Positions 11,107 to 57,818 of a stretch of 64,000 bases of DNA are shown here, one piece after another. The notes under the pieces were generated by a model. The model worked only from the letters and a program-made list of their open reading frames with translations. It was not told where the DNA came from and made no database searches. Source of the stretch: an uncultured Bacilli bacterium (GTDB lineage Bacteria; Bacillota_I; Bacilli_A; RF39; UBA660). The first letter of the stretch is position 1. Each line of letters starts with the position of its first letter. The DNA lies in the NCBI GenBank assembly GCA_934130375.1, contig CAKOXW010000001.1:328067-392066 (forward strand), in the 5' to 3' direction. Both the position numbers and the translations under genes were made by a program.

Positions 11107-11113
11107 CTCCTTA

Positions 11114-20202: not shown

Positions 20203-20226
20203 AAAAGATGAAACAAATCATCTTTT
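20203..20226. terminator. Bidirectional intrinsic terminator between the convergent Fic gene and the 20226..20642 gene
   Basis: AAAAAAGAUGA-AACAAA-UCAUCUUUUU. Confidence 0.5.
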
Positions 20227-20642: not shown

Positions 20643-20643
20643 A

Positions 20644-21927: not shown

Positions 21928-21939
21928 AAATCCTCCCAT

Positions 21940-22133
21940 AAAATAAAAAAGGACAATACCATAGGAACGAATTATCGTGGTACCATCCTAAATTATACTT
22001 AATTAAATAACGGTTTTTAACCGGGCACAAAGCCACTCTGGAGTAGATTCATAAACTCATATAACTAATTTTCACCAACCATTAGTTCTCTTTGATATAC
22101 TCATTTACTACTATGTTCCATCAACGTTTTACA
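21940..22133 (-). promoter_or_regulatory. T-box riboswitch leader (Ser specifier candidate UCU) with terminator
   Basis: Minus-strand T-box sequence AAUUUAGGAUGGUACCACG (plus 21975-21993). Terminator GAUGGUACCA...UGGUAUUGUC plus U6. Stem I AGAGA (plus tctct 22087-22091) and CCAGAGUGG. Possible TTGACA-17-TATTAT promoter at 22140-22168. Confidence 0.7.
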
Positions 22134-22147
22134 TATAAATAATACAT

Positions 22148-22717: not shown

Positions 22718-22718
22718 A

Positions 22719-23843: not shown

Positions 23844-23888
23844 TTAATCATCTCCTAACACTTTTATATTTTCAAATTTTTTTAAAAA

Positions 23889-24569
23889 TTAATTTATTAA
23901 CTTATTTTTTATACAATTAATTTCTTCATTAGAAAGTCCAATAATATTTAAATAATTTTGTATATTATCATATTTTTCATAAAATAATTCAATTGTTTTT
24001 TCCATTGTTTCCATTTCGCTTCTATTTACAAAGAACGGAACATCATAATTTTTATTGTGTTCTTTTCTAGCAAGCATTCTTATATATGTATAACTGACTT
24101 CATAGTCAGCAATAATATCATCATCGTATACATCTGCAAGCATCAAAAGAAGCATGCTAATAATTCCTGTCCTATCTTTCCCTGCTCTGCAATTATAAAT
24201 AACTCCACCTTTAGAATTAGCAATTGTTTTAAATACTAACTTAATGTTATCATAATCATTTATTATATTCATATAACAATTAGGAAAATCATCTTGAGAT
24301 TTAAAAAATTTATTGCCAACTAAATTAATATTATAATAATCAAAATAATCTTTTAAACAATTAGGATTACTAATGCATTCGTCTTTTTTTCTTAAATCAA
24401 TTACTGTCGTGAAATTATTATCTTTTAAAAATTTTATACCATTATCAGTAATATTTGTTGGTAAATCACTTCTAATAAATCTAAGTAATTTTACCTCAAT
24501 ACCATCTTTATTAATAATCCAACCAAGGTCTCTTAAATTGTTATTAGTACCTATCTTATATCTTTTCAT
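23889..24569 (-). CDS. Protein-tyrosine/dual-specificity phosphatase-like protein
   Basis: CX5R P-loop NCRAGKDRTG. Confidence 0.65.
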   Translation of the reverse strand: MKRYKIGTNNNLRDLGWIINKDGIEVKLLRFIRSDLPTNITDNGIKFLKDNNFTTVIDLRKKDECISNPNCLKDYFDYYNINLVGNKFFKSQDDFPNCYMNIINDYDNIKLVFKTIANSKGGVIYNCRAGKDRTGIISMLLLMLADVYDDDIIADYEVSYTYIRMLARKEHNKNYDVPFFVNRSEMETMEKTIELFYEKYDNIQNYLNIIGLSNEEINCIKNKLIN

Positions 24570-24583
24570 TATTGCACCCCCTT

Positions 24584-26023: not shown

Positions 26024-26041
26024 ATTGCCTCCTTTGAATAG

Positions 26042-26084
26042 AAAAAATCGGCATCAAAACGCATAACACGTTTAGATACCGATT
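26042..26084 (-). terminator. Leader intrinsic terminator (attenuator) immediately upstream of the Rel copy 1 RBS
   Basis: Minus-strand AAUCGGUAUC-UAAACG-UGUUAUG-CGUUU-UGAUGCCGAUU plus U6, then AAAGGAGGCAAUAUG. Confidence 0.6.
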
Positions 26085-26173
26085 GCAACAACAAGATTAC
26101 AGCATGTAAAAAGAAAGCCTTTAAATTCATATTTCTTACAATTTTCTAATTCCACACTTAATCCCTTATTCAT
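26072..26173 (-). CDS. Leader peptide (33 aa) with its stop codon inside the terminator stem
   Basis: RBS GAGAGG, ATG, then MNKGLSVELENCKKYEFKGFLFTCCNLVVAIGI*. It is conserved in frame and register with the copy 2 leader ORF (M-KGL..E..CCN..IG-stop). A TTGACA-17-TAAATT promoter is upstream at about 26203-26231. Confidence 0.5.
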   Translation of the reverse strand: MNKGLSVELENCKKYEFKGFLFTCCNLVVAIGI

Positions 26174-26361
26174 ACAAAAACCTCTCTAATAAAATTAAGT
26201 CTAATTTATCATTTTTATACTTGTATGTCAACACATTTTTATTATTTTTTTACATAAAAATTCACTTGCAAATATATGTATTAAAACCATCTGTTTTACA
26301 AAATACTGTTATAAGAAAATTAGAATTATCTAAATAGTTTTATTCACTAGAAAAGCCTTCA

Positions 26362-26895
26362 TTATTTATCAAATTCTTCTTTTGCAAGTTTAATAATATT
26401 TTTTATAAATTCGTCTTTACCCTGTGTATATAATTTTCTTTCATTTGCATATTTGTTTGCCAAAGACACTTTTAAATCATTATATTCTTTTATATAATCA
26501 GGATGACTTAATAAATATTTCTTAAAATATAATTGATTAAAATAGGTATCACTATTCGTAGTAGTAAAATGTATATAATGACTTCTAGCATTATCAGGTC
26601 CTTTAGCAAAGAATATTCTGCCTATTACTCCTTGCTCTTTCCTATTTTCATAACTATATGGTTTTAATAGTTCTTCAATACAAGGTATCTCATTTAAAGA
26701 TTTAATAACTATTAAAATATCAATTATTGGTTTTGCTTTTAAACCAGGTATAGAAGTACTTCCAACATGGTGTATTTCTATTATTTTATCTTTAAGTACA
26801 CTTTTTAATAAGTTTTCTTCTTTTTTATATTCATTTTCCCAGTTTGGATTATAATCTTCTAATTTAACAATTCCTCTTTGTAAAGCCATAATCAT
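26362..26895 (-). CDS. GrpB family protein (nucleotidyltransferase-fold)
   Basis: HVGSTSIPGLKAKPIIDI motif typical of GrpB/DUF. Confidence 0.65.
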   Translation of the reverse strand: MIMALQRGIVKLEDYNPNWENEYKKEENLLKSVLKDKIIEIHHVGSTSIPGLKAKPIIDILIVIKSLNEIPCIEELLKPYSYENRKEQGVIGRIFFAKGPDNARSHYIHFTTTNSDTYFNQLYFKKYLLSHPDYIKEYNDLKVSLANKYANERKLYTQGKDEFIKNIIKLAKEEFDK

Positions 26896-27273
26896 CCTCC
26901 ATTTTAATATTCTAATTTATTTATTATTTTTTCATCTTTTGAATTAGCAAACAATCACAACACATGACATTGATTACAATATTCTTATTATCAACTATAA
27001 ACTCAATACTAGATATTTTTTAACAATATCATATAATTTGCAAGACAACAGAATATTTTTTATTACAGATGCTTTTATTTGGCTTATTGAGTGCCTTCCA
27101 TCAACATTATAATTAAAATGAATGTATAAATTTATGAACAGTTCATCTTTTATGCTGGGCAAACATCTTATTTTATCCCTAATCTTATTTAAGTATTTAT
27201 CTATAAAATTATAATCATTTAACTTTTGTTTTCCTATTTAATTGTACCTTTTAAACGATTTTATCATAACAAA

Positions 27274-28545
27274 TTATTTCCTTTTAACCTTATTTTTAAC
27301 CTCTGCATAATTTATAATCGGCAACAAAACTCTACTTAATTTTTCGCACATGTCTGCCTCATATACTTTTTCCTTACAAAAATCAGTTACTTGTATAGTT
27401 TTGATATTAGCACTTTTTGAAGATATTATTCCTCTTTTTGAATCTTCAAAAGCAATACAATTATCGCTCAAAACATTTAATGAGTTGAGCGCCATTTCAT
27501 ATGCATCAGGCGCAGGCTTAAGTCTTTCTACATCTTCTCTTGATACAATAACATCAAAAAGCGTTTCAAGTTTCAATTTATTTAATAACAAATCTATAAA
27601 CTTTCTTCTACTTGTACTTACAAGAGCCAAATTTAAACCCTTATTTTTTAGTTGTTTTAACAATTCAAAATTTATAGTCACTTCATTTTCATCTAATAAC
27701 TCTATAAACTTTTGCTCATACTTTAAATAAACTTTTTGCATAATCAATTCATCAGACACATCATAACCAATTATTTTATCTTCTTTTAATTTTTTTATTA
27801 AATTTGCATTTTGCTTTAATTCATTTTCCTCATATTCTTTATAAGTGATTAGATAATCATAATCAGTTTGTATTACTTCTCTAAAACTTTCAAAAAATTT
27901 TTTTTCACTATTTATTAATGTGCCATCCAAATCAAATAAAATAGTAGTTAATTTTTGTGGAGGCATAGCATTTGTAAAAGTTTTATATGCTGAAAAATCA
28001 CAATAAGGTGAATTTGCATTTTGAAAGTTCAGACTTTTAAATTTTAAAACAAATTCTTTTAACTTATCTTGTAAATAATCAACACTCAAATCATCTTTAC
28101 AATATAATAATTCATATTTAACAAATGTTCCAATGCCATCTACTGTATCAACCATTACATTATATTCAAAATCACCATCATTTTTAGAATATATTACTCT
28201 TGTTTTGTTTACAATGGAATAGCTTAAATAACCCAAAGAAAACAACAAATCACTAATACTTTCGTAATTAGAAATATCTACATTAATACTATTCACTGTC
28301 TTTCCATGATTATTTAAAAAATCCCTAGAAGCTCCTTTGAACGCAACTTCTAGATGTTTATTATCTGTAATACGCATCCTTAAACAAGACCTATTCTTTA
28401 TAAAATTGCCATTAATGTCCACAAAATATTCATCTATCTCAAATTCTTCTTTTACTTTTTTAAGTCCACATTTATTAATAGTACTTAATAATTCATTATA
28501 ACTATCACAATAAAATTTTTCTTCATTTTCAATTTTTTTACTCAT
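27274..28545 (-). CDS. CYTH (triphosphate tunnel metalloenzyme) domain fused to a HAD-superfamily hydrolase
   Basis: N-terminal E-x-E-x-K-F CYTH-like start and LRMRI. C-terminal HAD motif I LFDLDGTL, motif II VSTS, and a Lys/Asp pair. Confidence 0.55.
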   Translation of the reverse strand: MSKKIENEEKFYCDSYNELLSTINKCGLKKVKEEFEIDEYFVDINGNFIKNRSCLRMRITDNKHLEVAFKGASRDFLNNHGKTVNSINVDISNYESISDLLFSLGYLSYSIVNKTRVIYSKNDGDFEYNVMVDTVDGIGTFVKYELLYCKDDLSVDYLQDKLKEFVLKFKSLNFQNANSPYCDFSAYKTFTNAMPPQKLTTILFDLDGTLINSEKKFFESFREVIQTDYDYLITYKEYEENELKQNANLIKKLKEDKIIGYDVSDELIMQKVYLKYEQKFIELLDENEVTINFELLKQLKNKGLNLALVSTSRRKFIDLLLNKLKLETLFDVIVSREDVERLKPAPDAYEMALNSLNVLSDNCIAFEDSKRGIISSKSANIKTIQVTDFCKEKVYEADMCEKLSRVLLPIINYAEVKNKVKRK

Positions 28546-45172: not shown

Positions 45173-45222
45173 GAAAAAAAGATAAAAATCTATCTTTTTA
45201 ACAATCTAAATTAAAATATCAA

Positions 45223-46340
45223 TTATTCACAAGCATTAACAACAACATTACTTGGAAAACTATAATTACCATCTTCCATAATTGGATTACCTCTAAACGC
45301 ATTACAACCAAGCGTTATTGGTGTATCAGGAAATGTAATTGAAGTTATTTGATTATTTTCAAAAGCATTGATACCTATTTCGGTAATACTTGATGGTATT
45401 GTAATATTTGTTAATTCATTACCAAAAAACGCATTTCTATATATACTTGTTACTGTATTAGGTATCACTACCGAAGTTATTCCTAAACCCGAAATCGATA
45501 TGGAAAGTGGTTTAACCACGTAATTATTAGAATTATAACTTAATAAACTTACTTTATAATCATTATTATAAGCAGTAAGTGTTGGTATAATACCTCCTGT
45601 TGTAAATGCATTATCTCCAATAGTAACAACTGTCTTACCATCTACTTGTGATGGTATTACTACATCAGTTCCTCCAGCAATATTATAACCTGTTATTTTT
45701 ATACCTTCTGTTGCATCTACTTTTAATCCTATAGTTTCATAACTATAATCCTCTAGAGTTGAAACTTCAAGTGCTAAATCGTTAACAGTAAGAGTCTTAT
45801 TATTTATTGTTAGTGAACCCGTTGTACAAAAAGTATTGGCTTGTGCTTCAGTACAACCAACTGGATTTTGCATAAACGTTTTACATTTGTCTATATCTAC
45901 AATTTCAGCACTATGAATTATTGGTGTATCTTCATAACTAAAATACTTAGTAGCAGTTTCAGCAATTTCTTTCTTAGCACTTGCTTTGGCACTATCCTTA
46001 GTGCCATCTACTACTTGTAAACCTTCAAACTTACCTTTACCTACTATTGATACTTTTGCATTTCCCTTATCATCAAAAGTAATATTACAACTTTCATAAT
46101 CATTTGAATTTATCTTAGCAACATCACTACATTTTATTGTACTACTACCATCTAATACTTGATTTTCAGTATATTTCTTTTCAGCCTGACTTGCTATTAA
46201 CTTTGCAGTTGTTTCTAATGATGCCTCCTTAGAATTTTTAATTACATCACTTATTTTTGGCATTGCAATAATTAGTATAACTGCCAAAATAACTATTACT
46301 GCTAATAATTCTACTAAAGTAAAACCCTTCTTTTTCTTCA
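45223..46340 (-). CDS. Type IV pilin-like protein fused to BspA-type leucine-rich repeats (copy A)
   Basis: Start at MKKKKG/FTLVELLAVIVILAVILIIAMP (ATG 46340, RBS AGGAGGAG). C-terminal LRRs (TSVVIPNTVTSI..., ITIPSSITEIG..., ITSITFPDTPITLG). The ORF track's upstream start is unlikely. Confidence 0.7.
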
Positions 46341-46378
46341 TAATCTCCTCCTTATTATACAAGGTTATTATACTATAC

Positions 46379-46388
46379 ACCCCCCCCC
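46379..46388 (-). repeat. Homopolymeric tract (C10 on plus, G10 on the coding strand) in the promoter spacer of pilin-LRR copy A
   Basis: It lies between the -35-like TTGTCA (complement of 46392-46397) and TAGTAT/TATAAT -10-like elements, about 45 nt upstream of the RBS. Confidence 0.7.
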
Positions 46389-46786
46389 ATTTGACAATGG
46401 GCGAGGGCGTTTTTTAGGCCTATTTTTGACATATTTTTACACAAAATTTGATATTTTATACTAAAACGACCACTTTTTAACTAATTATTACGGGATTTTA
46501 CATGTATTCAAAATAATACTAAAATCCCGTATGTGATTGAAAATATAATTAAAATAGTTATTATGAATATGTGAAGAAAGTCTTAATAAAATATAAAAGA
46601 AACACTTAACCAGTAATTAGGTGTTGCTTTACAACAAAACTAATCCTTATGATTAGACATTTTTTATATTCTACTAAAGATAGTGAACTATAAATAATAG
46701 AAGAGTAAGCACTAATAGAAGAATTGTAAAATCCTTCACCATGCACATACCTCATTTCATTTTTATAAGAAGTAGGCAATCAATAA

Positions 46787-48058
46787 TTAACATGATTCAC
46801 CAATAACATTATTAGGAAAACTATAACTATCATCATTTATAATTGGATTATCTCTAAATGCATCACAACCAAGCATTATTGGTGTATCAGGAAATGTGAT
46901 TGAAGTTATTTGATTATTTCTAAATGCATAAGCACCTATCGAAATAACACTATTTGGAATTGTTACACTTGTTAATTGATTGCCACTAAAAGCATAGTCA
47001 CCTATTTTGGTAATACTTGATGGGATTTCCACATTTGTTAATTTGTTACCATAAAATGAATTTTCACCTATACTTGTTAAAGTACTTGGCATTACTACTG
47101 AAGTAATTCCTAGACCATCACCTGTATTACTATCATAAAATGCCTTATCTCCAATAGCAACAACTGCCTTACCATCTATTTGTGACGGTATTACTACATC
47201 TGTTCCTCCACCATTTTCGTATGTTATCTTCAATCCGGCATTCTCATAGTCACTTGATGGTATATCTCCTGAGATAACATCTTTTTGAATTGTATATCCA
47301 TCAACCTCACCTCTACTGCAATAATTATTTGATTGTTCCTCATCATAAGAAAAATTTGTTTGAACATAATTTTTGCACTTATTTTCATCTACTACTTCAA
47401 CATTACATATTGTTCCAATTTCAAATCCTGTTATTGAAATACCATCTATTGTTTCTACTTTTAATCCTGCTGTTTCATAGTCACTTGATTGTATTAAATT
47501 AAGTGATACTGTATCTTGTAAACTCGAACCATTAACTGCTTGATCAGTTGTACATAATGTTGTTACTTGTTCTTCGGTTAATTTAAATTTAGATTGAATA
47601 TAACTTGTACATTTAGCAGTGTCTTCGACAATAACATTAGATACTACAGGTATGTCTACATAACTAAAATACTTAGCCTCAGTTGAGCAATCACTAGTTA
47701 TAGATGCACTATTCTTACTTGCATTACATACAGCCATACCTTCAAACTTACCCTTTCCTACTATTGATACTTTTGCATTTCCCTTATCATCAAAAGTAAT
47801 ATTACAACTTTCATAATCATTTAAACTTATCTTAGCAACATCACTACATTTTATTGTACTACTACCATCTAATACTTGATTTTCAGTATATTTCTTTTCT
47901 GCTTGACTTGCTATTAACTTTGCAGTTGTTTCTAATGATGCTTCCTTAGAATTCTTAATTACATCACTTATCTTAGGCATTGCAATAATTAGTATAACAG
48001 CCAAAATAACTATTACTGCTAATAATTCAACTAAAGTAAAACCTCTCTTTTCCTTCAT
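46787..48058 (-). CDS. Type IV pilin-like protein fused to BspA-type leucine-rich repeats (copy B)
   Basis: The N-terminal 110 aa are about 95% identical to copy A. The central region is divergent and Cys-containing. LRR C-terminus. RBS GAGGAGGAA. Confidence 0.7.
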   Translation of the reverse strand: MKEKRGFTLVELLAVIVILAVILIIAMPKISDVIKNSKEASLETTAKLIASQAEKKYTENQVLDGSSTIKCSDVAKISLNDYESCNITFDDKGNAKVSIVGKGKFEGMAVCNASKNSASITSDCSTEAKYFSYVDIPVVSNVIVEDTAKCTSYIQSKFKLTEEQVTTLCTTDQAVNGSSLQDTVSLNLIQSSDYETAGLKVETIDGISITGFEIGTICNVEVVDENKCKNYVQTNFSYDEEQSNNYCSRGEVDGYTIQKDVISGDIPSSDYENAGLKITYENGGGTDVVIPSQIDGKAVVAIGDKAFYDSNTGDGLGITSVVMPSTLTSIGENSFYGNKLTNVEIPSSITKIGDYAFSGNQLTSVTIPNSVISIGAYAFRNNQITSITFPDTPIMLGCDAFRDNPIINDDSYSFPNNVIGESC

Positions 48059-48107
48059 AATTTCCTCCTCTATTATACAAGGTTATTATACTATACACCC
48101 CCCCCCA

Positions 48108-48116
48108 TTTGGCAAT
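48108..48116 (-). repeat. Homopolymeric tract (C9 on plus, G9 on the coding strand) in the promoter spacer of pilin-LRR copy B
   Basis: Same promoter context as copy A. The -35-like hexamer is TTGCCA here. Confidence 0.7.
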
Positions 48117-48220
48117 GGGAGAGGATGTAAATAGACATAACTTTACATGCAATTTGCAAATTAATATACAAATCTTATAATCTTTAACATATAAATTTAT
48201 AAAAATGTAATATAAACTAT

Positions 48221-48639: not shown

Positions 48640-49521
48640 CTAACCTTCTATATAACTTAAAATATCATCTATATTCGCATCTACCTCTTCATTTGCAAGT
48701 CCAATAATGGGTCTTATACCATCACTAGCATGAAAATCAGAACCAATTGTAGATACTAAAGCATTATCAATAGCAAATTTATTCCATAATTTTACTTCAT
48801 TTATTTTATTATTATTCCTATCTACATAAACATAATTACCTTCAATCGCATGGCAATCCATACTTTTAAGTATTTTTAAAACTTCATCACAAGACAAATT
48901 ATCTTCATATTTGTACGCAACAGGATGCGCCAAAACAGGCTTACCACCATATTTTCTTATAATATCAGCAGCATAAGAAGGAGTAATAGTTTCTTTCTTA
49001 ACATAACAAGGACATCCTTCGTTCATAATAGTTTCAATAAATTCACCCTTATTTGGAATATGATTAAAATATTTAATCAAATTATCCTTGTTGTTCTTAT
49101 TATTAATTACATCATTTGCTATATGCGCCTTTGTAACTGCATCTATCTTATCAAGGGTATTTACATCTAATATAAATCCAACACTTTCTAACTTCTTACT
49201 AACATCATATAAATACTTATGCCTTGTACTTCTTAAGCCACATAATATATCACTAAACTCTTTATTGTTTATATCGATATTATAGCCAAGGACATGTATT
49301 CCACATTTATTACTTTTAGTAGATATTTCTATACCCGGTATCAATTTGATACCTTTTTTCTTAGCGTATTCTATTAAGTCTTCTGTATATGCACTTATAG
49401 TATCATGGTCTGTAATAGATATAATTTTTACATTATTTTTGTATGCTTCATCTATTACTTCATACGGACTAAGCACTCCATCTGAACAAGTTGTATGTAT
49501 ATGCAAATCTATCTTTTCCAT
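48640..49521 (-). CDS. PHP-domain phosphoesterase (TrpH/YciV-like)
   Basis: IDLHIHTTCSDG...ITDHDT PHP motifs. 293 aa. Confidence 0.75.
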   Translation of the reverse strand: MEKIDLHIHTTCSDGVLSPYEVIDEAYKNNVKIISITDHDTISAYTEDLIEYAKKKGIKLIPGIEISTKSNKCGIHVLGYNIDINNKEFSDILCGLRSTRHKYLYDVSKKLESVGFILDVNTLDKIDAVTKAHIANDVINNKNNKDNLIKYFNHIPNKGEFIETIMNEGCPCYVKKETITPSYAADIIRKYGGKPVLAHPVAYKYEDNLSCDEVLKILKSMDCHAIEGNYVYVDRNNNKINEVKLWNKFAIDNALVSTIGSDFHASDGIRPIIGLANEEVDANIDDILSYIEG

Positions 49522-50468
49522 CCTTCAATCCTCTTTCTAAAACTTTTTTGTAATTCCTCTGTTTCAAATCTTCTTAAAACTGAATCAGGTGCGACACTTA
49601 TAAATAGCTTTTCTATTTCTTCTTCAGTAAATTTTGATAATAATGTACTTCTTGTTTCTTCTAGTAATTCATCTAGTTTTCCAAATCTAAAAGGGGTAAA
49701 TGAATATAAATAATCTAATATAAAATTATAAGCCTCATCATCATATTGCCACTTTTTTCTAAGTGAGTGCGGATGTATAGGCAAATAAGGAACTGTGTTA
49801 TTTTTTATTGCATTTTCAATAACACGTGGTGCTTCTTTTAAAATATTTACAAACTTACTATACTCTATAACATGTATATCAAGCGGCAAATATTTATCAG
49901 GCATTTTTCCGCTTATTAAATCTTTTGCAATTAATGAAAATTCTCTCATTGTTCTTAGTGGGTCAACATCAGAAGTATACATTTCCTCTTTATTAAATTT
50001 CCTAACAAGCATTTCTTTTGCTTGACTTATTTTGCCATCTTCACAAATCATCCATATATCTAAATCAGGCAATCTATTTATTACTTTTCTAGGTTTTAAC
50101 TCATCATCCATATTTGGACATGGCTTACATAATATTTTTAAATCGGGCATGTTAAAATAATTTTTCTCCATGCAATCAGCACATACCCAGTACTTTTTAT
50201 CACTTTTAGATGCATGAAAAGCAAGTTCATCATTATATCTTATTTGTTCATTTATAACAGGTAAATCACCATTTAAATCCTCTTCTAAAACATAAAATGG
50301 ATATCCAGTTGCAAAACTCCCCTTAAATCCTATTGTACTTTTCATAATTGTTACAACTTTTATTATATTTGAGGCATAATACTCTCTTTTTAAATCTGTA
50401 TTACATTTTTCAAATAAATTTGATATTGCTGAAATATAAGTACAAAATTCAATTGGTAAATTATTCAT
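49509..50468 (-). CDS. Hypothetical protein with an internal Cys4 zinc-ribbon (CADC...CKPC)
   Basis: WVCADCMEKN...LCKPCPNMDDE. Overlaps the PHP gene by 13 nt. No confident family. Confidence 0.35.
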   Translation of the reverse strand: MNNLPIEFCTYISAISNLFEKCNTDLKREYYASNIIKVVTIMKSTIGFKGSFATGYPFYVLEEDLNGDLPVINEQIRYNDELAFHASKSDKKYWVCADCMEKNYFNMPDLKILCKPCPNMDDELKPRKVINRLPDLDIWMICEDGKISQAKEMLVRKFNKEEMYTSDVDPLRTMREFSLIAKDLISGKMPDKYLPLDIHVIEYSKFVNILKEAPRVIENAIKNNTVPYLPIHPHSLRKKWQYDDEAYNFILDYLYSFTPFRFGKLDELLEETRSTLLSKFTEEEIEKLFISVAPDSVLRRFETEELQKSFRKRIEGWKR

Positions 50469-50678
50469 CCAATCACCTCCCTACACGTTTGTTTAATAAA
50501 ATATCAAAGTAAAATTCCTAAATAATAATTAAATTAGATTTAATTTATCACTTTTATTTATATATGTCAAATATTTTAAAATATGAATACATGCAATTAA
50601 TCATTTTTATTGCATTTGCTTTTCATATTTTTATTTTTCAAAAAAAATTATCTCATTTACAAAGATAATTTTTAATAA

Positions 50679-51989
50679 CTATTTTTCAAAAAACTCTTTT
50701 ATTTCATCAAATTTAACTTGGTTTTGTTCACCTGTTACCATATTTTTTATTGTTAAAGTATTAGTATTAATTTCATCTTCGCCAATAATAACTGCATATT
50801 TTGAATTCATATTATCAGCATACTTTATCTTAGATTTAAACTTTTTATTAATGTAACATATACTTGTGGAAATACCCAATTCCCTTATTTTTTTAGATAC
50901 TTCGAGGCACATTTTATAATCTTCTGTCATAGGAAGTATCATAACATCAACTGGTGAATTTATTTCATTATTTATAATACAATTTTCTTTTAATTGATAA
51001 AATAATCTTGTAAGACCAATTGATATTCCAACACCAGGTAATTTTTTATCAGTATAATAAGTCGCTAAATCATCATACCTACCACCTGAACATACACTGC
51101 CTATTTGTGGGTAATCTACTAACTTTGTTTCATACACAACACCAGTATAGTAATCAAGACCTCTTGCGATTGTTAAATCGATTGCAAAGTACTCTTCATC
51201 AATATTCATTGCTCTTAATGAATTTATAACTGTTTCTAGTTCATTAATACCATTTATAAACGTTTCATTTTCAATATTCAAATTCTTTAAACTATTTAAT
51301 ATATCATCATTAGAACCTTTAATTTTAATAAATGACAAAATTTTATTTACTATTTCATCAGTTAGATTTATTTCTTTTAACATGTCAATTAAATCATCTT
51401 CAGAAACTTTTTCCATTTTATCAATTATTCTTAAAATATCTTGATACTTATCAGATAAGTTTAAGTTTTCAAAAAATCCATTTAATATTTTTCTACTATT
51501 AATTCTAATAACAAATTTACCAATATTCATCTTAGTAAAAATATCATAAATAATTGATGGTATTTCAGCATCATACATAAGTGATAATTCGCCATCACCT
51601 ATAACATCTATATCACATTGATAAAATTCTCTAAATCTTCCCTTTTGAGGTCTTTCACCTCTAAAAACTTTACCTATTTGATATCTTTTAAATGGAAAAG
51701 ATAATTCATTATATTTTGCTGAAACATATTTTGCCAAAGGCACAGTTAAATCAAATCTTAATGATAAATCATTATCACCTTTATTAAATCTATATATTTG
51801 TTTTTCAGTTTCACCACCTGCTTTTGCAAGCAATACACTAGAATACTCAATAATAGGAGTATCAAGTGGGTAAAAACCATATAACTTATATGTGTCTTCT
51901 ATAATATTTTTAATTCTATCAAATTCAATTTGATCAAGTGGACTTAATTCCATAAATCCAGACAAAGTTTTAGGCTCAACTTTATTCAT
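50679..51989 (-). CDS. hisS: Histidyl-tRNA synthetase
   Basis: Class II motifs FRGERPQKGRFREFYQCDID and GGRYD...GVGISIGLTR. C-terminal anticodon-binding domain present. 436 aa. Confidence 0.85.
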   Translation of the reverse strand: MNKVEPKTLSGFMELSPLDQIEFDRIKNIIEDTYKLYGFYPLDTPIIEYSSVLLAKAGGETEKQIYRFNKGDNDLSLRFDLTVPLAKYVSAKYNELSFPFKRYQIGKVFRGERPQKGRFREFYQCDIDVIGDGELSLMYDAEIPSIIYDIFTKMNIGKFVIRINSRKILNGFFENLNLSDKYQDILRIIDKMEKVSEDDLIDMLKEINLTDEIVNKILSFIKIKGSNDDILNSLKNLNIENETFINGINELETVINSLRAMNIDEEYFAIDLTIARGLDYYTGVVYETKLVDYPQIGSVCSGGRYDDLATYYTDKKLPGVGISIGLTRLFYQLKENCIINNEINSPVDVMILPMTEDYKMCLEVSKKIRELGISTSICYINKKFKSKIKYADNMNSKYAVIIGEDEINTNTLTIKNMVTGEQNQVKFDEIKEFFEK

Positions 51990-52022
51990 AAATTCTCACT
52001 CCTTGTTCTTCTATATTTTACT

Positions 52023-52135
52023 AAAAAAAAGCACTTATTACAATAATAATAACTATTTTCTTTTTATAACATACTAAAATATCACCTACACAAAAGAAAA
52101 AACACTATAAAGTGTCTATTCATTTTTCAATCTCA
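52023..52135. repeat. About 113-bp intergenic repeat element, copy 1 (copy 2 at 57266..57378)
   Basis: AAAAAAAAG(C/T)ACTTATTACAATAATAATAACTATTTTCTTTTTATAA...ACACTATAAAGTGTCTAT(T/C)CATTTTTCAATCTCA. About 90% identity between the copies. Contains the hairpin CACUAUAAAGUG. Confidence 0.7.
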
Positions 52136-52187
52136 ATCATAGCATTTAAAACAACCATATTGTAACATACTATCTATATTAATAAAT

Positions 52188-52871
52188 TCAATTCTGTTCG
52201 GGTTTGAAAGCCCTAACATTACCAAATAATTCAATTTCTTCAGTATCCCTATTATAAATCATTGCACCATCATCATATATTGCATAAACATTTTTGCTCT
52301 TCTCATTTGCAACTTTTTGTAATTTAGATAAATATCTTGAATTATTTATTGTATGAACATCAATATAGAATGGATCATCAATTACTCCAAAACCATCATA
52401 AAATGAAAAATACTTATAAAAATTATTTTTTGCTGTTATAAAATATCTTTTTAATTGTAATTCTGTTCCAGCACTTTCACCAATTATAATTCCTTTATAA
52501 TGTTTTATATCATAAAGAATTTCAGTACCATGAACAACTTTACTAAAAAACATTTCGGGATTACCACCTGGTAATAATATAACATTAGATTTTTTTATAA
52601 TCTGTTTTAATTTTTCCTTCGAATCACTATAACAATTACACACAGTTATATCATTCTCATTTATGCCTATCTTTTTTAGTTCATTTATATATCTATTATA
52701 TCTTTTTTCTCCCTTTTTAAAAAATTCATTATCTAATTTTTGAGCATCTATTTCAACAGGAAATGCCCAAGGAAAAATCGCAACTTTTGAATTCTTTGGA
52801 ATTATTTGTTTTAATTTATCACTAACTAAATCCATCCCCATTTCAATTCTACTAAATAAAACACTATACAT
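52188..52871 (-). CDS. Peptidase S51 (dipeptidase E/cyanophycinase-like, class I glutamine-amidotransferase fold)
   Basis: ILLPGGNPEMF and IIIGESAGTE motifs. Confidence 0.55.
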   Translation of the reverse strand: MYSVLFSRIEMGMDLVSDKLKQIIPKNSKVAIFPWAFPVEIDAQKLDNEFFKKGEKRYNRYINELKKIGINENDITVCNCYSDSKEKLKQIIKKSNVILLPGGNPEMFFSKVVHGTEILYDIKHYKGIIIGESAGTELQLKRYFITAKNNFYKYFSFYDGFGVIDDPFYIDVHTINNSRYLSKLQKVANEKSKNVYAIYDDGAMIYNRDTEEIELFGNVRAFKPEQN

Positions 52872-53142
52872 TCTTCTTTATCCTCTCTAATTTCTTAGCA
52901 GCCATTTGACCGCATCCAACATTAATTTTGTCACAAATACTTTCAAATTTTGAATTTCGAATATTTCTTTCATCCAACATTTTATGTAAAATTCGTATCG
53001 TTATTCTGATAATTTACTAAATTTACCATTTTCAATTCCATTATAAGTACTTATTTTTACTTTATCATCATATTCTAAAAAATTCAATAATTCTATAAAT
53101 TTTTTATTTCTTCATATGTTAAATTTTGCACAAAATTTTTAT

Positions 53143-53319
53143 TTAACCATTGTAACACATTTGAAATGCTATCGGGCATCCAACTTGACATGACATACAT
53201 AAATGGCAAGTATCTCCATCAGCAATAACTCCTGTTTCAATAACAAAGTTGTCATTTGTTATTTGTAATATTTTTATTGATTTATCAATCTAACCACATG
53301 TTCTATCAATTATTTTCAT
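53143..53319 (-). pseudogene. Cys-rich micro-ORF with an in-frame TAG, translationally coupled (ATGA) to the upstream gene
   Basis: MKIIDRTCG-TAG-IDKSIKILQITNDNFVIETGVIADGDTCHLCMSCQVGCPIAFQMCYNG-TAA. The ATG overlaps the TGA of 53316..54404. Confidence 0.35.
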
Positions 53320-54404
53320 AATAAGCCACCCTTATACATTTTTTTCATTATTTTAATATTATTTTGCATATTAGTATTGTAATTTAATAAAATATATAAA
53401 ATTTCTTCTATTTTTGCATCTGGATTTATTAATTCAGATGCATTTAAAATCATTGATTTATATAAATTTTTTATTTTTGTTTCACTTATTCCATTTAAAT
53501 AACTAGCTACTGAATCTGACCAATTACAATTTTTATTATGCCATCTTAAATTATATAAAATTAGTAATGCCTTATATTCTTTCAATAATTTTTTTTCATA
53601 TTGATTTTTAGCATTTTTTAAATCCATATTTAAATAGGGATTAGCTATAAATGATAATCTTTTATTTGAAGATATTGCTGCCAAATAATTCATAAAATAC
53701 ATTGCAAATAATTGATGATTACTAGCAATATAAATTTGATTTTGTTCTTGCATTAAATTAAAATAATTACTCCAAATAAAATCAACATCAATATTAAATA
53801 TTCCTTCACGTGTGTCAATTTCAAATCCTGTATTTCTACCTTTAGAAATAAGAATATCGCTATTTTTGAAATTTTTACTTAATTCCTTCATTTCCTTTTC
53901 TAAAAACAATGGACATATAGACGGGATAATTGTTTCATCCCTTATCTCAAGAACTAATGACTTCTCTTGATATTTTTTACATTCTTTACCACAGTGATTG
54001 CATATTATTTTTCCATTTTGTCTAGTGTATAATTTTTCATTATTAATAGATTCACATAGCATATCAACACGACCACATTCACATCTTATTGTTTCTTTGG
54101 TTTTAACTTTTATAAAACCATCATAATACATTTTTTCAATTATATTTAGTAATTCATCACTATAATTTTTATCAATAAAAACAGAATCATAGTTTATGCC
54201 TGAATTATTAACATAACTCAAATAACTGTTTAAATTAACATCTTTATTTTCATAACTATGTATTGTATTAAATCCAATATTCTTTTTAATTGATAGTGAT
54301 GACCCAATATAGTCCATTATGGTTGGTGATATCATCATCCCAATATTTGTTTCTTGTTGCGGTTTAATTGGCAAAGTTAAAATTATTGTATCTTGTTTAT
54401 TCAT
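53316..54404 (-). CDS. Hypothetical protein (362 aa) with a double CxC/CxxC zinc-knuckle
   Basis: RCECGRVDMLC...CNHCGKEC. Overlaps the nucleotidyltransferase gene by 8 nt. Confidence 0.4.
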   Translation of the reverse strand: MNKQDTIILTLPIKPQQETNIGMMISPTIMDYIGSSLSIKKNIGFNTIHSYENKDVNLNSYLSYVNNSGINYDSVFIDKNYSDELLNIIEKMYYDGFIKVKTKETIRCECGRVDMLCESINNEKLYTRQNGKIICNHCGKECKKYQEKSLVLEIRDETIIPSICPLFLEKEMKELSKNFKNSDILISKGRNTGFEIDTREGIFNIDVDFIWSNYFNLMQEQNQIYIASNHQLFAMYFMNYLAAISSNKRLSFIANPYLNMDLKNAKNQYEKKLLKEYKALLILYNLRWHNKNCNWSDSVASYLNGISETKIKNLYKSMILNASELINPDAKIEEILYILLNYNTNMQNNIKIMKKMYKGGLL

Positions 54405-55536
54405 TTGTCATACCTCCTAAAAATTTATAACACATATCATACAATTTTTTCTTATATAAATTCAAATCGTCTAATATATTATTTTTATTAAAAATTCTTT
54501 TATAATCATTATTGATATCTACAAGATTCAGTAAATCATTTGAATGAGAACTCAAATCGATTTGTTTTAAATCTAGTATATACTGTAAATCTTGAATGAC
54601 ACCCAAATATTTATAAAAGTAAATAAATATTTTTTTGTCTAATTTTTTACTATTTGAAAAAAAACAATCAATAGTAAATTCATTAACATCTTTTTCCATT
54701 CTAAAATCGATAGCTAATAATTTATAAAAATTAAATAATACACATGTTTTATAAATAGATTTTAATTCACAATTTTTTATTTTATTAATTGAAGAATCTA
54801 TATATATATTGTTTTTACTAATGTCTTCTATTAAATCTTTTTTAAATTTTTGAATATTACTTAAATCATTACATACTTTTCTTTGTAAATCAAATATGTT
54901 TTTATACTCATTTGAATAAATAAATTTAAAACAATAAGTCCATTCATTAATACAATCTTTTGTATCGTTTGAATTTAAATATTTTATAACATCATTTAAA
55001 TTTCTAGTTGAATTATACATTTCAAATAACAATTTTTTAGAATTTTCTCTACATGGTATATTTAAAATTCCATCATCAAATACTAATTTATATAAATTAT
55101 CATTTTGTAAATTTAATCTTTTATTTGATATTAATGGTAAATAAACTACCAAACTATGTATTTTATCTTTCCCTCTAAATTTTAAAACCTCTTGTATAAT
55201 AAAATTGATTTTATCTTCAATATCAATAATATTTTTATAATCACAACTACATGTTAGATAATTTATATCAACATCGCTAAATAAAGTGTTTGAATTTCTT
55301 CCTAGACTTCCACTAAGAGTAATACAAAAATCAATTTTATATATTTTTTTGAATTCATTTGCCAATTCTTGTATCATCCGAATTATATAATTTCTATATC
55401 TCATATTAATATCAACGAAATCTTTAATCGTTATTTTTTTATAAATATTTACATATTCATTTCTCAAATTAATTATTCTATTTTGATATTTTTGAATGTA
55501 TTTTAGTTTGATTTTTTCATAATCCAATATTTTCAT
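54397..55536 (-). CDS. Polymerase-beta superfamily nucleotidyltransferase (379 aa) with a helical C-terminal domain
   Basis: LSGSLGRNSNTLFSDVDINYL matches the G-S-x9-13-D-x-D core. The start overlaps the Rel copy 2 stop (ATGA). Confidence 0.55.
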   Translation of the reverse strand: MKILDYEKIKLKYIQKYQNRIINLRNEYVNIYKKITIKDFVDINMRYRNYIIRMIQELANEFKKIYKIDFCITLSGSLGRNSNTLFSDVDINYLTCSCDYKNIIDIEDKINFIIQEVLKFRGKDKIHSLVVYLPLISNKRLNLQNDNLYKLVFDDGILNIPCRENSKKLLFEMYNSTRNLNDVIKYLNSNDTKDCINEWTYCFKFIYSNEYKNIFDLQRKVCNDLSNIQKFKKDLIEDISKNNIYIDSSINKIKNCELKSIYKTCVLFNFYKLLAIDFRMEKDVNEFTIDCFFSNSKKLDKKIFIYFYKYLGVIQDLQYILDLKQIDLSSHSNDLLNLVDINNDYKRIFNKNNILDDLNLYKKKLYDMCYKFLGGMTNE

Positions 55537-56999
55537 GCTTTATCACCATTTTCAACTAATAATTTTCTATTAAATTCTTTTAATTTCTTTTTAGCCAAGC
55601 TAGTTTGAGCTTTCTCTAACCAGCCCTCCCTAGGACCATAAGATAACTCATTTGTAACTATTCTTACTCTATCTTTATTTTGAAGAACATAATCAACTGG
55701 TACATATTCATCATTTACAAATGCACCAACCATTGTATTACCAATATCTGTATCCAAATTATACGCATAATCTATTACTGTTGAACCTTTTGGCAACTCT
55801 ATAATATCTCCCTTTGTTGTATATACATATATTTTATTTGCAAACAATTCATTTTTTACTTGATTTACAAATTGTTGATTATCTCCAAATATTGAATTTA
55901 TTTCTATTAATGATTTAAAAAATTGATATTTTTGTTTTAAATCATCTTGCATTACATCTCTTGCTTTCCCTTTTTCTATATCCCAATATGCAGTTAGTCC
56001 AAAAGAAGCAATCTTATCCATATCAAATGTTCTTATTTGTGTTTGAACTAATCTATCTTCAGGACCAAAAACTGTTGTATGTAAACTTCTATACATATTA
56101 GTTTTCGGATTACATATATAATCTTTAAATTTATCATTTATTGGTTTATATTTACTATGCACTAAATACAAGCCAATATAGCAATTCTCTATTTCATCTA
56201 CCATTATCTTAAGTGCTAGTAAATCATGTATATCTGATAATTTATGTCCTTCTGATAATCTTTTATATATTCCATAAATATTCTTAGTTCTTACCTTTAT
56301 TTCATTTGGTATATTTCTATCATTTAATAGTGTTTCAATCTTATATAGCATTTCTTTTAAAATATCACCAGAAGTCTCTTCTAATCTTATCTTTTTTTCC
56401 CCAATTCTTTTGTATACATCTGGTTTTAAATACTTTAAAGATAAATCTTCTAATTCAGATTTAATTCTATATGCTCCAATATAGTACGCAAGTGGGACAA
56501 ATATTTCCATTGTCTCAAGTGAATTTTCTTTTTGCTTAAATTCAGATTTAAATTCTAATGTCCTCATATTATGAAGTCTATCTGCAAGTTTAATTATAAT
56601 TATTCTTACATCATCCGTAATACCTGTTATAATTTTTCTAGTATTTGCATAATTTTGGTCTTGCTTAGAAGAAAAATTCATTTTAGCAAGTTTAGTAACA
56701 CCATCTACTAAATTAGCAACATTTTGATTAAAATCATGAGCAATATCTTCTTTCTTAATATTCGTATCTTCTAGAGTATCATGCAATAACCCTGCACACA
56801 CAGTATCACTATCAGCATGCATTTCAGATAGAATATACGCAACATTAAGAGGATGACTTATATATGGTTCTCCACTTTGTCTTACTTGACCATTATGAAG
56901 ATAACTTGCATAGTCATATGCCTTTTTAACATCACTTATTGCATCTGGATTATACTCACTTAAATTTCTTAACAAATCGTCAATTGTAATGCTATTCAT
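55533..56999 (-). CDS. Truncated RelA/SpoT-homologue (HD, synthetase, TGS), copy 2
   Basis: Nearly identical at nucleotide level to 24584..26023 apart from the last 25 codons. Start chosen at MNSITIDD (ATG 56999, RBS GGGAGG). The ORF track's TTG at 57035 lies inside the leader terminator. Confidence 0.8.
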   Translation of the reverse strand: MNSITIDDLLRNLSEYNPDAISDVKKAYDYASYLHNGQVRQSGEPYISHPLNVAYILSEMHADSDTVCAGLLHDTLEDTNIKKEDIAHDFNQNVANLVDGVTKLAKMNFSSKQDQNYANTRKIITGITDDVRIIIIKLADRLHNMRTLEFKSEFKQKENSLETMEIFVPLAYYIGAYRIKSELEDLSLKYLKPDVYKRIGEKKIRLEETSGDILKEMLYKIETLLNDRNIPNEIKVRTKNIYGIYKRLSEGHKLSDIHDLLALKIMVDEIENCYIGLYLVHSKYKPINDKFKDYICNPKTNMYRSLHTTVFGPEDRLVQTQIRTFDMDKIASFGLTAYWDIEKGKARDVMQDDLKQKYQFFKSLIEINSIFGDNQQFVNQVKNELFANKIYVYTTKGDIIELPKGSTVIDYAYNLDTDIGNTMVGAFVNDEYVPVDYVLQNKDRVRIVTNELSYGPREGWLEKAQTSLAKKKLKEFNRKLLVENGDKA

Positions 57000-57023
57000 C
57001 CAATACCTCCCTTGAATAGAAAA

Positions 57024-57062
57024 AATCGGCGTCAAAACGCATAACTCGTTTAGACACCGATT
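57024..57062 (-). terminator. Leader intrinsic terminator (attenuator) upstream of the Rel copy 2 RBS
   Basis: AAUCGGUGUC-UAAACG-AGUUAUG-CGUUU-UGACGCCGAUU plus U6 on the minus strand. Confidence 0.6.
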
Positions 57063-57187
57063 TTATTAATTTTTGCATAATTCACATAAATAGCAGAATT
57101 GCAGCATAGAAAAGCAGAACATCTTTTTGAAAAAATATTCCTTTTAATAAAATTAATATCAATTTCCATACCTAATCCCTTAATCAT
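57050..57187 (-). CDS. Leader peptide (45 aa) ending inside the terminator stem
   Basis: MIKGLGMEIDINFIKRNIFSKRCSAFLCCNSAIYVNYAKINKIGV*. Same start context (GAGGUUUUUGUAUG) and same stop position relative to the hairpin as copy 1. Promoter TTGACA-17-TAAATT upstream. Confidence 0.5.
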   Translation of the reverse strand: MIKGLGMEIDINFIKRNIFSKRCSAFLCCNSAIYVNYAKINKIGV

Positions 57188-57608
57188 ACAAAAACCTCTT
57201 AAATAAAATTAAATCTAATTTATCATTTTTATTTTTATATGTCAACATATTTTCTTCTTTTTTTCAAAAAAAAGTACTTATTACAATAATAATAACTATT
57301 TTCTTTTTATAATATATTAAAACATCACCTACACAAAAGAAAGAGCACTATAAAGTGTCTATCCATTTTTCAATCTCAGTTATATCAGTAACAAGTTTAT
57401 GTGAATTATAATCAGTATCAAACACTATATTAATACAATCTACATTATCATTAGTTAATTTCTTTATATCATTAAATGTATGACCTAACCATCCTGCATT
57501 AGTTGCATAAGCCTTTACTATTTTATAATTAAATATAATCCTGTTTTTGCATTTTTCGTAATATCACCTTTCTTCTTTTAAAATTCTTTCTTTAAATATA
57601 TTTCTCTA

Positions 57609-57818
57609 TTTTTTATTAGCATTTTCTCTTGCTAGTTCTATATTCTTAGATGCGACAAATGTACCTTTTCCTTGAACTGACCTTATGTATCCTTCATTTT
57701 CTAGTTCATCATATACTTTCTTTATAGTCATTACATTTATTTTAATATCACTTGCAAGCGTTCTAATTGAAGGGATAGCATCACCACTTTTTAATTCATC
57801 AGTTATTATTTGGTTAAT
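57609..57818 (-). pseudogene. GntR-family HTH gene remnant (no intact start)
   Basis: INQIITDELKSGDAIPSIRTLASDIKINVMTIKKVYDELENEGYIRSVQGKGTFV... is homologous to 44340..44708 but lacks a start codon in frame. An S51-like C-terminal fragment follows downstream. Confidence 0.5.

Follow-up and report, generated by a model that had tools for sequence, protein, structure and literature searches.

Processed microcin C is an aminoacyl-adenylate mimic that blocks an aminoacyl-tRNA synthetase (aaRS) and triggers the stringent response (PMC9239234). The S51 peptidase MccG, the S66 peptidase MccF and the RimL-type GNAT acetyltransferase MccE2 have each been shown experimentally to inactivate it, through cleavage of the aminoacyl-nucleotide carboxamide bond or acetylation of the amino group, and the phosphoramidase MccH is a fourth, unrelated microcin C enzyme (PMC9239234). 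Here, a stretch of 64,000 nt (the window; contig CAKOXW010000001.1 of an uncultured Bacilli bacterium, positions 328,067 to 392,066) is described in which a divergent S51 peptidase is encoded in one operon with a pol-beta-superfamily nucleotidyltransferase (NTase), a protein resembling methionyl-tRNA synthetase (MetRS) and a RelA/SpoT homologue (RSH), the latter being Rel copy 2 of two copies in the window. The module resembles microcin C immunity in that its hydrolase is mostly an S51 peptidase, in one locus an S66 peptidase, and in that one variant includes a GNAT of the Acetyltransf_3 family. Unlike the mcc clusters, it is without the ThiF-like MccB, the MccA peptide and the mcc exporter, and its hydrolase, of a divergent S51 subfamily, is tied to an NTase and a MetRS-like protein, a pairing that occurs in no mcc cluster. 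No description of the MetRS-like family or of the MetRS-like/NTase/S51 module was found in the literature, and no family model was found either. Each fold is known; the combination, the MetRS-like family and the RSH variant with its Cys-rich leader appear to be undescribed.

The region has a G+C content of about 25%, and nearly all of its genes lie on the minus strand. The features of the locus, in the order in which they would be transcribed and with the evidence for each in brackets, are as follows.

57252 to 57387, minus strand: upstream copy of a direct repeat of about 120-139 nt, with terminator-like hairpins (repeat comparison)
57217 to 57245, minus strand: sigma-70-like promoter of leader and operon, TTGACA, 17 nt, TAAATT, with a TG extension (consensus match)
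57050 to 57187, minus strand: Cys-rich leader open reading frame (ORF) of 45 codons, MIKGLGMEIDINFIKRNIFSKRCSAFLCCNSAIYVNYAKINKIGV (ORF list, sequence)
57020 to 57064, minus strand: predicted intrinsic terminator or attenuator hairpin, aaaatcggtgtc ... gacgccgatttt, then a T run (sequence and minimum-free-energy folds)
55533 to 56999, minus strand: truncated long RSH (Rel copy 2) with HD_4, RelA_SpoT and TGS domains (Pfam, TIGR00691, 6yxa alignment)
54397 to 55536, minus strand: predicted DrrA/GlnE-like pol-beta NTase, 379 aa (alignment A2, AlphaFold2 model, Foldseek, profile against PDB)
53316 to 54404, minus strand: predicted MetRS-derived class I aaRS paralogue, 362 aa (alignment A1, AlphaFold2 model, Foldseek, profile against PDB)
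52864 to 53319, minus strand: predicted pseudogene of an RlmN/Cfr-like radical SAM methyltransferase, which includes 53143-53319 (frame, intact gene of relatives)
52188 to 52871, minus strand: divergent S51-family serine peptidase, 227 aa (Pfam, cyanophycinase alignment across GxSAG, conservation, synteny)
52006 to 52144, minus strand: downstream copy of the direct repeat, between S51 and hisS (repeat comparison)

The original prediction had read three large genes, joined by overlaps of 4 and 8 nt, as the body of a tightly coupled operon, and this is borne out. Three contiguous minus-strand ORFs of 500 aa (55533-57035, counted from a TTG), 379 aa (54397-55536) and 362 aa (53316-54404) overlap by 4 nt between RSH and NTase (55533-55536) and by 8 nt between the NTase and the 362-aa gene (54397-54404), the likely start of the RSH ORF being the ATG at 56999, 7 nt after a GGGAGG site. 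The NTase/362-aa overlap is kept in relatives of about 50% identity, with 8 nt in locus L003 (6860-8008 and 8001-9092) and 4 nt in locus L005 (6814-8004 and 8001-9092), and the module is syntenic in more than 60 independent loci, so that the coupling lies far beyond chance. The operon is real and conserved in uncultured low-GC gut Bacilli, and its true conserved fourth gene is the S51 peptidase gene just downstream (52188-52871), which had been overlooked. A gene for HisRS, identified by Pfam, follows at 50679-51989.

In a scan of one genome per species, the MetRS-like locus was present in 29 species, a lower bound because the search patterns were specific to the subfamily of the window. All are metagenome-assembled genomes of uncultured gut Bacilli, Tenericutes or Mycoplasmatota (e.g. 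Firmicutes bacterium CAG:884), these being the labels that the host records carry. The NTase gene lies directly upstream of the MetRS-like gene in 27 of the 29 loci, and an S51 gene follows, directly or after a radical SAM gene, in 25 of them, the exceptions being contig ends or one variant. Co-occurrence across genomes, which the original prediction had proposed to follow for RSH, NTase and the 362-aa gene together, holds for the latter two; an adjacent RSH gene is absent from most loci. A metagenome scan (alignment A4) gave 44 further loci with the same pattern. One architecture consists of NTase, MetRS-like and S51 genes, a second has an RlmN-like gene added before S51, and a third comprises NTase, an Acetyltransf_3 GNAT, MetRS-like and a GT2 glycosyltransferase.

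Members of the module are also found fused. Protein P0183 combines this NTase family with the MetRS-like domain (E 1.6e-33 and 2.5e-42), P0186 and P0189 join a MetRS-like domain to a minimal NTase, and P0175 joins S51 to a MetRS-like domain; in P0161 the partner of the MetRS-like domain is a phosphoribosyltransferase (PRTase) and in P0116 a HAD domain. These PRTase and HAD fusions, a PfkB kinase, a Phosphodiest protein and a TobZ-like carbamoyltransferase make up the variable accessory genes near the module, all of them for nucleotide or nucleoside enzymes. Genes for aaRSs often lie nearby, with HisRS in the window, IleRS in L040 and Lys/AspRS, HisRS-like and SerRS genes in L036. The possibility that hisS is a conserved member of the module was rejected, as no other locus has hisS within 10 kb.

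The 362-aa protein, in which two pairs of Cys had been noted and to which no function is assigned, matched no Pfam or NCBIfam model. A first homologue search gave 53 unnamed clusters (90% identity), none with a Pfam domain, and an exhaustive profile search brought the family to 364 clusters at 50% identity with E <=1e-3, 267 of them with E <=1e-10 and nearly all of 340-390 aa. Matches to the broad alignment A3 fell almost only within the close clade. The AlphaFold2 model, built on 39 of the clusters, had a pLDDT of 93.3, and its 50 best Foldseek matches in the PDB were all MetRS (best E 5.6e-13, TM 0.58-0.71, identity 10-13%). When the broad profile was compared with the PDB, MetRS again ranked first, at a sub-significant E of 0.3, in a co-linear alignment that sets P-k-l-G-l of the family opposite P-H-L-G-H of MetRS. 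Judged by its modelled fold, the 362-aa protein is a MetRS-derived class I aaRS paralogue.

As in MetRS, a class I Rossmann fold carries a connecting peptide (CP) insertion with a CxC...CxxC Zn knuckle, here C108xC110...C135xxC138, and both Cys pairs are invariant in alignment A1. Unlike MetRS, the family has T-N-I-G-M at the HIGH position (N20, G22 and M23 conserved) and no KMSKS-like motif after the P256-Y257 strand in alignment A1. Approximately 90 helical residues follow the catalytic core, and the protein has 362 aa against about 500 for MetRS; being some 140 residues shorter, it probably misses most of the anticodon-binding domain. Polar residues that are new and invariant in the family comprise K14, K188, R190, D206 and D208 of a D-x-D pair, and S228-N229-H230-Q231; Y257, Y284 and Y315 are invariant as well. 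Given the loss of both HIGH and KMSKS, the protein is predicted to be no longer able to activate amino acids with ATP, for which it may be likened to the aaRS paralogues without aminoacylation, namely HisZ, the HisRS-like domain of GCN2 and the cyclodipeptide synthases. In synthetases, the Rossmann/CP scaffold and the Zn knuckle hold the aminoacyl-adenylate and the 3' end of the tRNA.

The 379-aa protein belongs to a family of 42 clusters. Within alignment A2, residues G76, S77, D88, D90 and D124 are invariant, in agreement with its initial assignment to the pol-beta superfamily from G76-S77...D88-x-D90; among Pfam models NTP_transf_2 and DUF294 matched below threshold only. The AlphaFold2 model (pLDDT 90.7) was closest in Foldseek to the AMPylation domain of Legionella DrrA (6yx5_B, E 1.4e-5), followed by Escherichia coli GlnE (3k7d, E 1e-3), and the sequence profile also retrieved DrrA from the PDB (E 3.8e-5), with GSLA...SD(I/L)D aligned. 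Matches to the CD-NTase CdnE were far below DrrA in the same Foldseek search (E 0.17-0.26, probability <=0.15). The modelled structure therefore identifies a predicted DrrA/GlnE-like pol-beta NTase, not a CD-NTase. It shares with DrrA/SidM and GlnE the G-S-x10-D-x-D core flanked by N- and C-terminal helical domains. Unlike these, it is without a GEF or P4M domain or the tandem architecture of GlnE, and the identity is 10-12% at a TM of about 0.47. Its gene is followed by those for the MetRS-like protein, S51 and HisRS, with the radical SAM pseudogene between the first two. A toxin-antitoxin pair of the MNT-HEPN or MenT type was considered and rejected, the MntA model reaching E 0.036 at a score of 14 bits (cut-off 60), with no HEPN neighbour.

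The kinship to protein adenylyltransferases, the closest solved relatives of the NTase, raises the possibility of a protein-AMPylation switch. The NTase would then AMPylate the MetRS-like pseudo-enzyme, an aaRS or RSH on a Tyr, Ser or Thr, and the MetRS-like protein would act as an amino-acid or tRNA sensor that tunes a (p)ppGpp hydrolase, as the HisRS-like domain does in GCN2. NTase-MetRS-like fusions and the invariant Y257, Y284 and Y315 would suit such a switch, as would an RSH that lacks the C-terminal domains for ribosome coupling and so may need another sensor. It would leave unexplained why a serine hydrolase is obligatory and why S66 or alpha/beta enzymes replace it; to our knowledge, de-AMPylases are not serine peptidases. 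Most loci, moreover, have the trio of NTase, MetRS-like and hydrolase genes without an adjacent RSH, and the structural similarity to DrrA is moderate (TM 0.47). We consider this switch rather unlikely.

The S51 peptidase is the most conserved partner in the module, with 60-78% identity, and scores just above the cut-off of PF03575 (27.6 bits vs 23.9). Ser133 and His173 never vary across 25 S51 sequences of the module, and at position 200 there is Asp in 23 of them and Glu in two. The candidate Ser-His-acid triad, assigned by spacing and alignment, resembles the Ser-His-Asp triad of MccG. Other hydrolases take the same place in some loci: Peptidase_S66 in L041, and in L036 an alpha/beta hydrolase that is fused to the NTase and replaces S51. 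An Acetyltransf_3 GNAT (RimJ/L-like) is inserted in L001, L029 and L031. The hydrolase of the module would thus be functionally constant yet non-homologous across loci.

Because the S51, S66 and GNAT families, as interchangeable or accessory members of the module, match the inactivators of microcin C, and because a MetRS scaffold suits an aminoacyl-adenylate or aminoacyl-A76, an RlmN-like enzyme methylates adenine and the accessory genes encode nucleotide enzymes, the reading we favour is that the module processes ligands of the aminoacyl-adenosine type, which it would bind, nucleotidylate and hydrolyse. We infer both the ligand class and the direction, which would be detoxification or turnover and not synthesis, and give this reading a probability of about one in three.

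Alternatively, the NTase and the MetRS-like protein could form a biosynthetic core that builds a new aminoacyl- or peptidyl-nucleoside, either an antibiotic or an intracellular signal, with radical SAM, GT2, GNAT and carbamoyltransferase enzymes decorating the product and S51 or S66 serving self-immunity or turnover. A constant core is indeed ringed by variable tailoring enzymes, large serine recombinases adjoin the module in several lineages, and L001 runs on into genes for APH, an aminotransferase, a thioredoxin and a C39-ABC exporter; the immunity-type enzymes are also the same as in mcc clusters (PMC9239234). Most loci, on the other hand, have the trio alone, without exporter or precursor. 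No ThiF-like MccB, Asn-ending MccA or exporter was found among the operon genes or the top Pfam families of 120 non-redundant neighbour proteins, no peptide with a conserved C-terminal Asn was seen, and the MetRS-like protein is without ATP-binding motifs. Synthesis of this kind appears quite unlikely.

Between the 362-aa gene and S51, the original prediction had placed a Cys-rich micro-ORF as the fourth gene. Its junction stands in part, since an ATG at 53319 does share an ATGA with the stop codon of the 362-aa gene, but the frame is not open. It reads MKIIDRTCG, a stop (TAG at codon 10), then IDKS...CHLCMSCQVGCPIAFQMCYNG and a further stop, and the ORF list contains no ORF of at least 20 aa that spans 53143-53319. 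In L008, L007, L009, L012 and L013 an intact gene of 282 aa occupies this position and has the same N-terminus (MKIIDK...NTCHLCVSCQIGCPISCQMCYNG) as well as the ATGA overlap. This intact orthologue is a radical SAM protein (Pfam, E 1.2e-15). That of L008 matches TIGR00048 at E 7.7e-45 (153 bits vs a cut-off of 290) and E. coli RlmN (PDB 3rf9) at E 1e-26, and shares with RlmN and Cfr the CxxxCxxC cluster motif and both mechanistic Cys motifs. The alignment starts at position 73 of the RlmN model, which indicates an RlmN-like protein without the first ~70 residues of RlmN; these residues form the N-terminal accessory domain. It thereby differs from RlmN/Cfr, as it does in scoring below the family cut-off. 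Compared with L007, the closest relative (NTase 91% and 362-aa protein 94% identical to those of the window), the window copy has a premature stop and an internal loss of approximately 387 nt (L007 11306-11692), and out-of-frame 3' fragments remain at 53001-53087 and 52864-52980. We read 52864-53319 as a pseudogene derived from an RlmN/Cfr-like radical SAM gene and reject the idea that the micro-ORF encodes a small ferredoxin or a Cys-rich peptide.

Rel copy 2 contains HD_4 (E 2.5e-41), RelA_SpoT and TGS domains in the canonical order (Pfam) and is approximately 50% identical to Bacillus subtilis Rel as estimated from the alignment (phmmer E 2.5e-125), so that it belongs with the long RSHs of the Rel/SpoT type. 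Unlike these, it stops about 30 residues past TGS, without the helical, ZFD and ACT/RRM C-terminal region (TIGR00691 is matched over positions 1-453 of 687), and lies behind a putative Cys-rich leader attenuator. Alignment to B. subtilis Rel (6yxa) places a Gln at the catalytic Glu E324 and shows that the MH..AE/AAHW motif is altered. The Gln and the altered motif are found in eight of the eight clade members checked (both window copies, L001, L007, L008, L014, L018 and L031), in all of which the hydrolase motifs LLHDTLED and DRLHNMRT are intact, as HD motifs are in long RSHs, hydrolase-only SpoT and small alarmone hydrolases. In B. subtilis Rel, E324V is a synthetase-dead allele (PMC7098656). 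The RSHs of this clade, all of which stop just past TGS, are probably hydrolase-only long RSHs, the loss of synthetase activity being deduced from the substitution.

Over 1713 nt that take in the leader, the two Rel copies of the window share 93% identity, which indicates recent duplication or gene conversion (homogenisation) between the paralogues; the other Rel of L007 is only 67% identical. Rel copy 1 lies at 24584-26023 behind its own leader region (26024-26260) and, as had been noted, has other partners. Its gene string (20226-28545) encodes a Y_phosphatase3 protein of the tyrosine phosphatase family, a type I phosphodiesterase/nucleotide pyrophosphatase (Phosphodiest), Ham1/ITPase and SerRS, with GrpB and a CYTH-HAD fusion ahead of them. 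L040 likewise has a Phosphodiest gene, which adjoins IleRS and the fusion of MetRS-like and NTase domains.

The NTase gene is immediately preceded by a full RSH gene in the window, L001/2, L008, L014, L018 and L031, and likewise in L054/55, L058/59 and L066-68, while Rel remnants remain in L003/4, L019 and L025. L007 shows a clean deletion of Rel: its leader region, which corresponds to window 57268-57105, runs straight into the NTase. From this deletion, together with the recurrence and the remnants, the adjacency of RSH and module is taken to be old and to have been lost repeatedly. In further relatives, which have no RSH gene, the slot beside the NTase or the MetRS-like gene is filled by NUDIX genes (L045, L048-50, L077) or by a small HD_4-only protein (L081/82), NUDIX being the commonest Pfam family among the 120 neighbour proteins. 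As the slot is filled by RSH, NUDIX or HD_4-only proteins, the recurrent partner is predicted to be a nucleotide pyrophosphohydrolase and not a synthetase.

These observations bear on the account given in the original prediction, in which an alarmone or oligonucleotide synthase (the RSH, and an NTase of possible CD-NTase type) was combined with an effector in a newly assembled module for second-messenger signalling or anti-phage defence. The synthase part fails because Gln replaces the catalytic Glu of the RSH synthetase, and hydrolases take the same slot in relatives; a CD-NTase was not recovered, the nearest relatives being DrrA and GlnE, with nothing significant in PADLOC, PHROGs or viral contigs. 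Recent assembly is contradicted by the L007 deletion junction and by the recurrence of RSH, NTase, MetRS-like and S51 genes where the partner proteins are only 38-60% identical. It had further been allowed that the partners might be common housekeeping neighbours of Rel in Clostridia with an assigned function: they are recurrent neighbours of Rel, but in uncultured Bacilli and without an assigned function. A pol-beta NTase and an RSH are present, as in a defence module, the genomic location is variable with recombinases nearby, and weak PADLOC matches were seen (RSH to PDC-S33, E 1.2e-6; NTase to PDC-S09, E 0.003). In common with CBASS, the operon has a pol-beta-superfamily NTase. Unlike CBASS, it has no CD-NTase similarity, no effector with a nucleotide-sensor domain and no Cap genes, and PADLOC matched no CBASS model and found no system over the window. 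Nor is any effector or sensor recognisable in the operon. No relatives of the module were found on 2.9 million viral contigs, no PHROG matched the NTase, the MetRS-like protein or S51, and throughout a whole clade with reduced genomes the module occurs in single copy and conserved synteny. A defence system was rejected as a candidate, and a signalling or defence role of this type must be regarded as very improbable.

The same components can be arranged around the aminoacylated 3' end of tRNA, which fits the chemistry of the favoured reading equally well. In a tRNA 3'-end surveillance or repair system, the MetRS-like protein would dock the acceptor end, the hydrolase would remove an aberrant aminoacyl or N-acyl-aminoacyl group from A76, the NTase would extend or nucleotidylate the 3' end, the RSH HD domain (or NUDIX) would remove lesions of the 3'-pyrophosphate type and the RlmN-like enzyme would methylate a tRNA adenine. 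The MetRS fold with its strictly conserved CP Zn knuckle would be suited to this, RlmN is a tRNA/rRNA adenine methylase, and the RSH partner retains its TGS domain, which binds the CCA end of tRNA. The toxSAS enzymes pyrophosphorylate tRNA 3' ends and are counteracted by small alarmone hydrolases of the HD type. L036 has TrmD, MiaA, LigT, a DHH protein and three aaRS genes as neighbours, and HisRS and SerRS lie near the two Rel operons of the window. Since reduced genomes are rich in translation genes, however, these aaRS neighbours may be coincidental, and hisS is adjacent in no other locus. A protein of 362 aa, vs ~500, that probably misses most of the anticodon-binding domain and an RlmN-like protein without its first ~70 residues also count against tRNA as the substrate, and the accessory PRTase, HAD, PfkB, GT2 and carbamoyltransferase proteins are better suited to small-molecule chemistry. 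Action at the tRNA 3' end is somewhat less likely than the favoured reading, to which it is the main alternative.

Upstream of each RSH gene, a promoter-like site is followed by a ribosome-binding site, an ORF of 26-63 codons and a strong terminator whose 5' arm consists of the last codons of the leader ORF. Such leaders were seen in the window at 57020-57245 and 26024-26260, in L001, L003, L007, L008, L014 and L018, and also in L053, L055, L058, L066, L068 and L078. The promoter holds the same position in the leaders of relatives, the window site being a match to the consensus, and minimum-free-energy folds gave the terminator hairpin in seven of seven leaders. Cys makes up 43 of the 605 residues (7.1%) in 15 distinct leader peptides; proteins of the same loci have 1.3%, and 2.6% would be expected of random ORFs (binomial p 1e-18 and 5e-9, respectively, for peptides that are not fully independent). 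As the end of the leader ORF forms the 5' arm of the terminator, translation of the leader probably controls entry into the operon, and the whole looks like a Cys-codon-rich attenuator, a candidate for Cys-sensing or coupling-type control. A T-box or riboswitch in the leaders or in the 139-nt repeat has no support from Rfam, where nothing reached the gathering threshold over the whole window or an E up to 1 over 51900-57700. A precursor of a ribosomally synthesized and post-translationally modified peptide, or of microcin C type, was rejected as the main interpretation of the leader ORF, which precedes RSH including the module-less copy 1, has no conserved C-terminus and forms the terminator with its 3' end.

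The direct repeat of ~120-139 nt (88% identical) brackets the whole block of leader, Rel, NTase, MetRS-like and S51 genes, suggesting an insertion or recombination upstream of hisS, and the context upstream of the module differs even in its closest relative, L007. Large serine recombinases adjoin the module in L008 (13123-14727), in L009, L012, L015, L029 and L044, and in others; they account for four of the 120 non-redundant neighbour proteins, which represent a second locus set. The flanking repeat and the nearby recombinases suggest that the module may move, and hint that it lies at the edge of integrative elements or travels with them.

If the favoured reading, processing of aminoacyl-adenosine-type ligands, is followed through, the promoter would drive the Cys-codon-rich leader ORF, whose translation would gate entry into the operon. 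The truncated RSH would only hydrolyse 3'-pyrophosphates of the (p)ppGpp type. The MetRS-like subunit would bind a ligand of the aminoacyl-adenosine type; a free analogue of an aminoacyl-adenylate, for instance a toxic warhead that poisons aaRSs, is the most likely one. In complex with this subunit, the NTase would nucleotidylate a hydroxyl of the ligand, and the serine hydrolase would cut the aminoacyl-nucleotide bond as MccG and MccF do. The pyrophosphohydrolase (RSH-HD, NUDIX or HD_4) would reset the nucleotide or alarmone side of the response, joined in some lineages by an RlmN-like adenine methylase that has decayed in the window. What was observed of this scheme is the folds, the motifs lost and gained, the fused genes and the synteny. 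Even if the mechanism is wrong, there remain solid and apparently undescribed findings, namely the trio with its conservation and fusions, the exchange of S51 for S66 and alpha/beta enzymes and that of RSH for NUDIX and HD_4 proteins.

Several points weigh against the scheme. MccG alone suffices for resistance to microcin C, and a strictly conserved operon of three enzymes seems to exceed what detoxification needs. With HIGH and KMSKS lost, adenylate binding by the MetRS-like protein may not be retained, and the new invariant polar residues of the family may belong to an unrelated catalytic site. The targets of DrrA and GlnE are protein tyrosines, not small molecules. The S51 assignment barely exceeds the Pfam cut-off, and most loci are without a transporter, precursor gene or regulator that would link the module to antibiotics.

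A further proposal, which we regard as unlikely, is that the MetRS-derived protein serves as the recognition subunit of an undescribed complex with an AMPylase-type NTase and a serine hydrolase, that this complex monitors or edits aminoacyl-adenosine moieties, either free or at the tRNA 3' end, and that it is wired in gut Bacilli to a hydrolase-only RSH under a Cys leader. If true, tRNA-charging chemistry would be linked in bacteria to alarmone degradation through an aaRS-like sensor, in parallel to the HisRS-like domain of GCN2, and a route of resistance to, or surveillance of, aminoacyl-nucleotide (Trojan-horse) antibiotics that target gut aaRSs could exist. Should the ligand class be correct, an aaRS paralogue without a family model would gain a new function, and a DrrA/GlnE-like AMPylase would gain a partner and substrate context outside pathogens and nitrogen control. 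A clade of abundant uncultured gut bacteria would then have Rel-type proteins that are probably hydrolase-only, without a ribosome-sensing C-terminus and under the control of a Cys-rich leader.

Elsewhere in the window, a 319-aa protein with CxxC-type motifs is encoded at 49509-50468 (region 48640-50570) and gave no Pfam, NCBIfam, PADLOC, PHROG or PDB match. Its gene overlaps by 13 nt a PHP-domain gene (RNase RNM / pAp-phosphatase-like), and the promoter-like site in front of it, TTGACA-17-TAAATT, matches the Rel leader promoter in form. Upstream of the module, at 57606-57731, an ORF of 41 aa resembles a C-terminal fragment of a GntR-type HTH regulator and is probably a gene remnant. Two adjacent paralogues at 45223-46380 and 46787-48058 (region 45218-48124) share repeats that are 79-90% identical, and have segments of ~70% identity in common with a Flg_new/Gly-rich surface protein gene at 9207-10985 (10253-11124).

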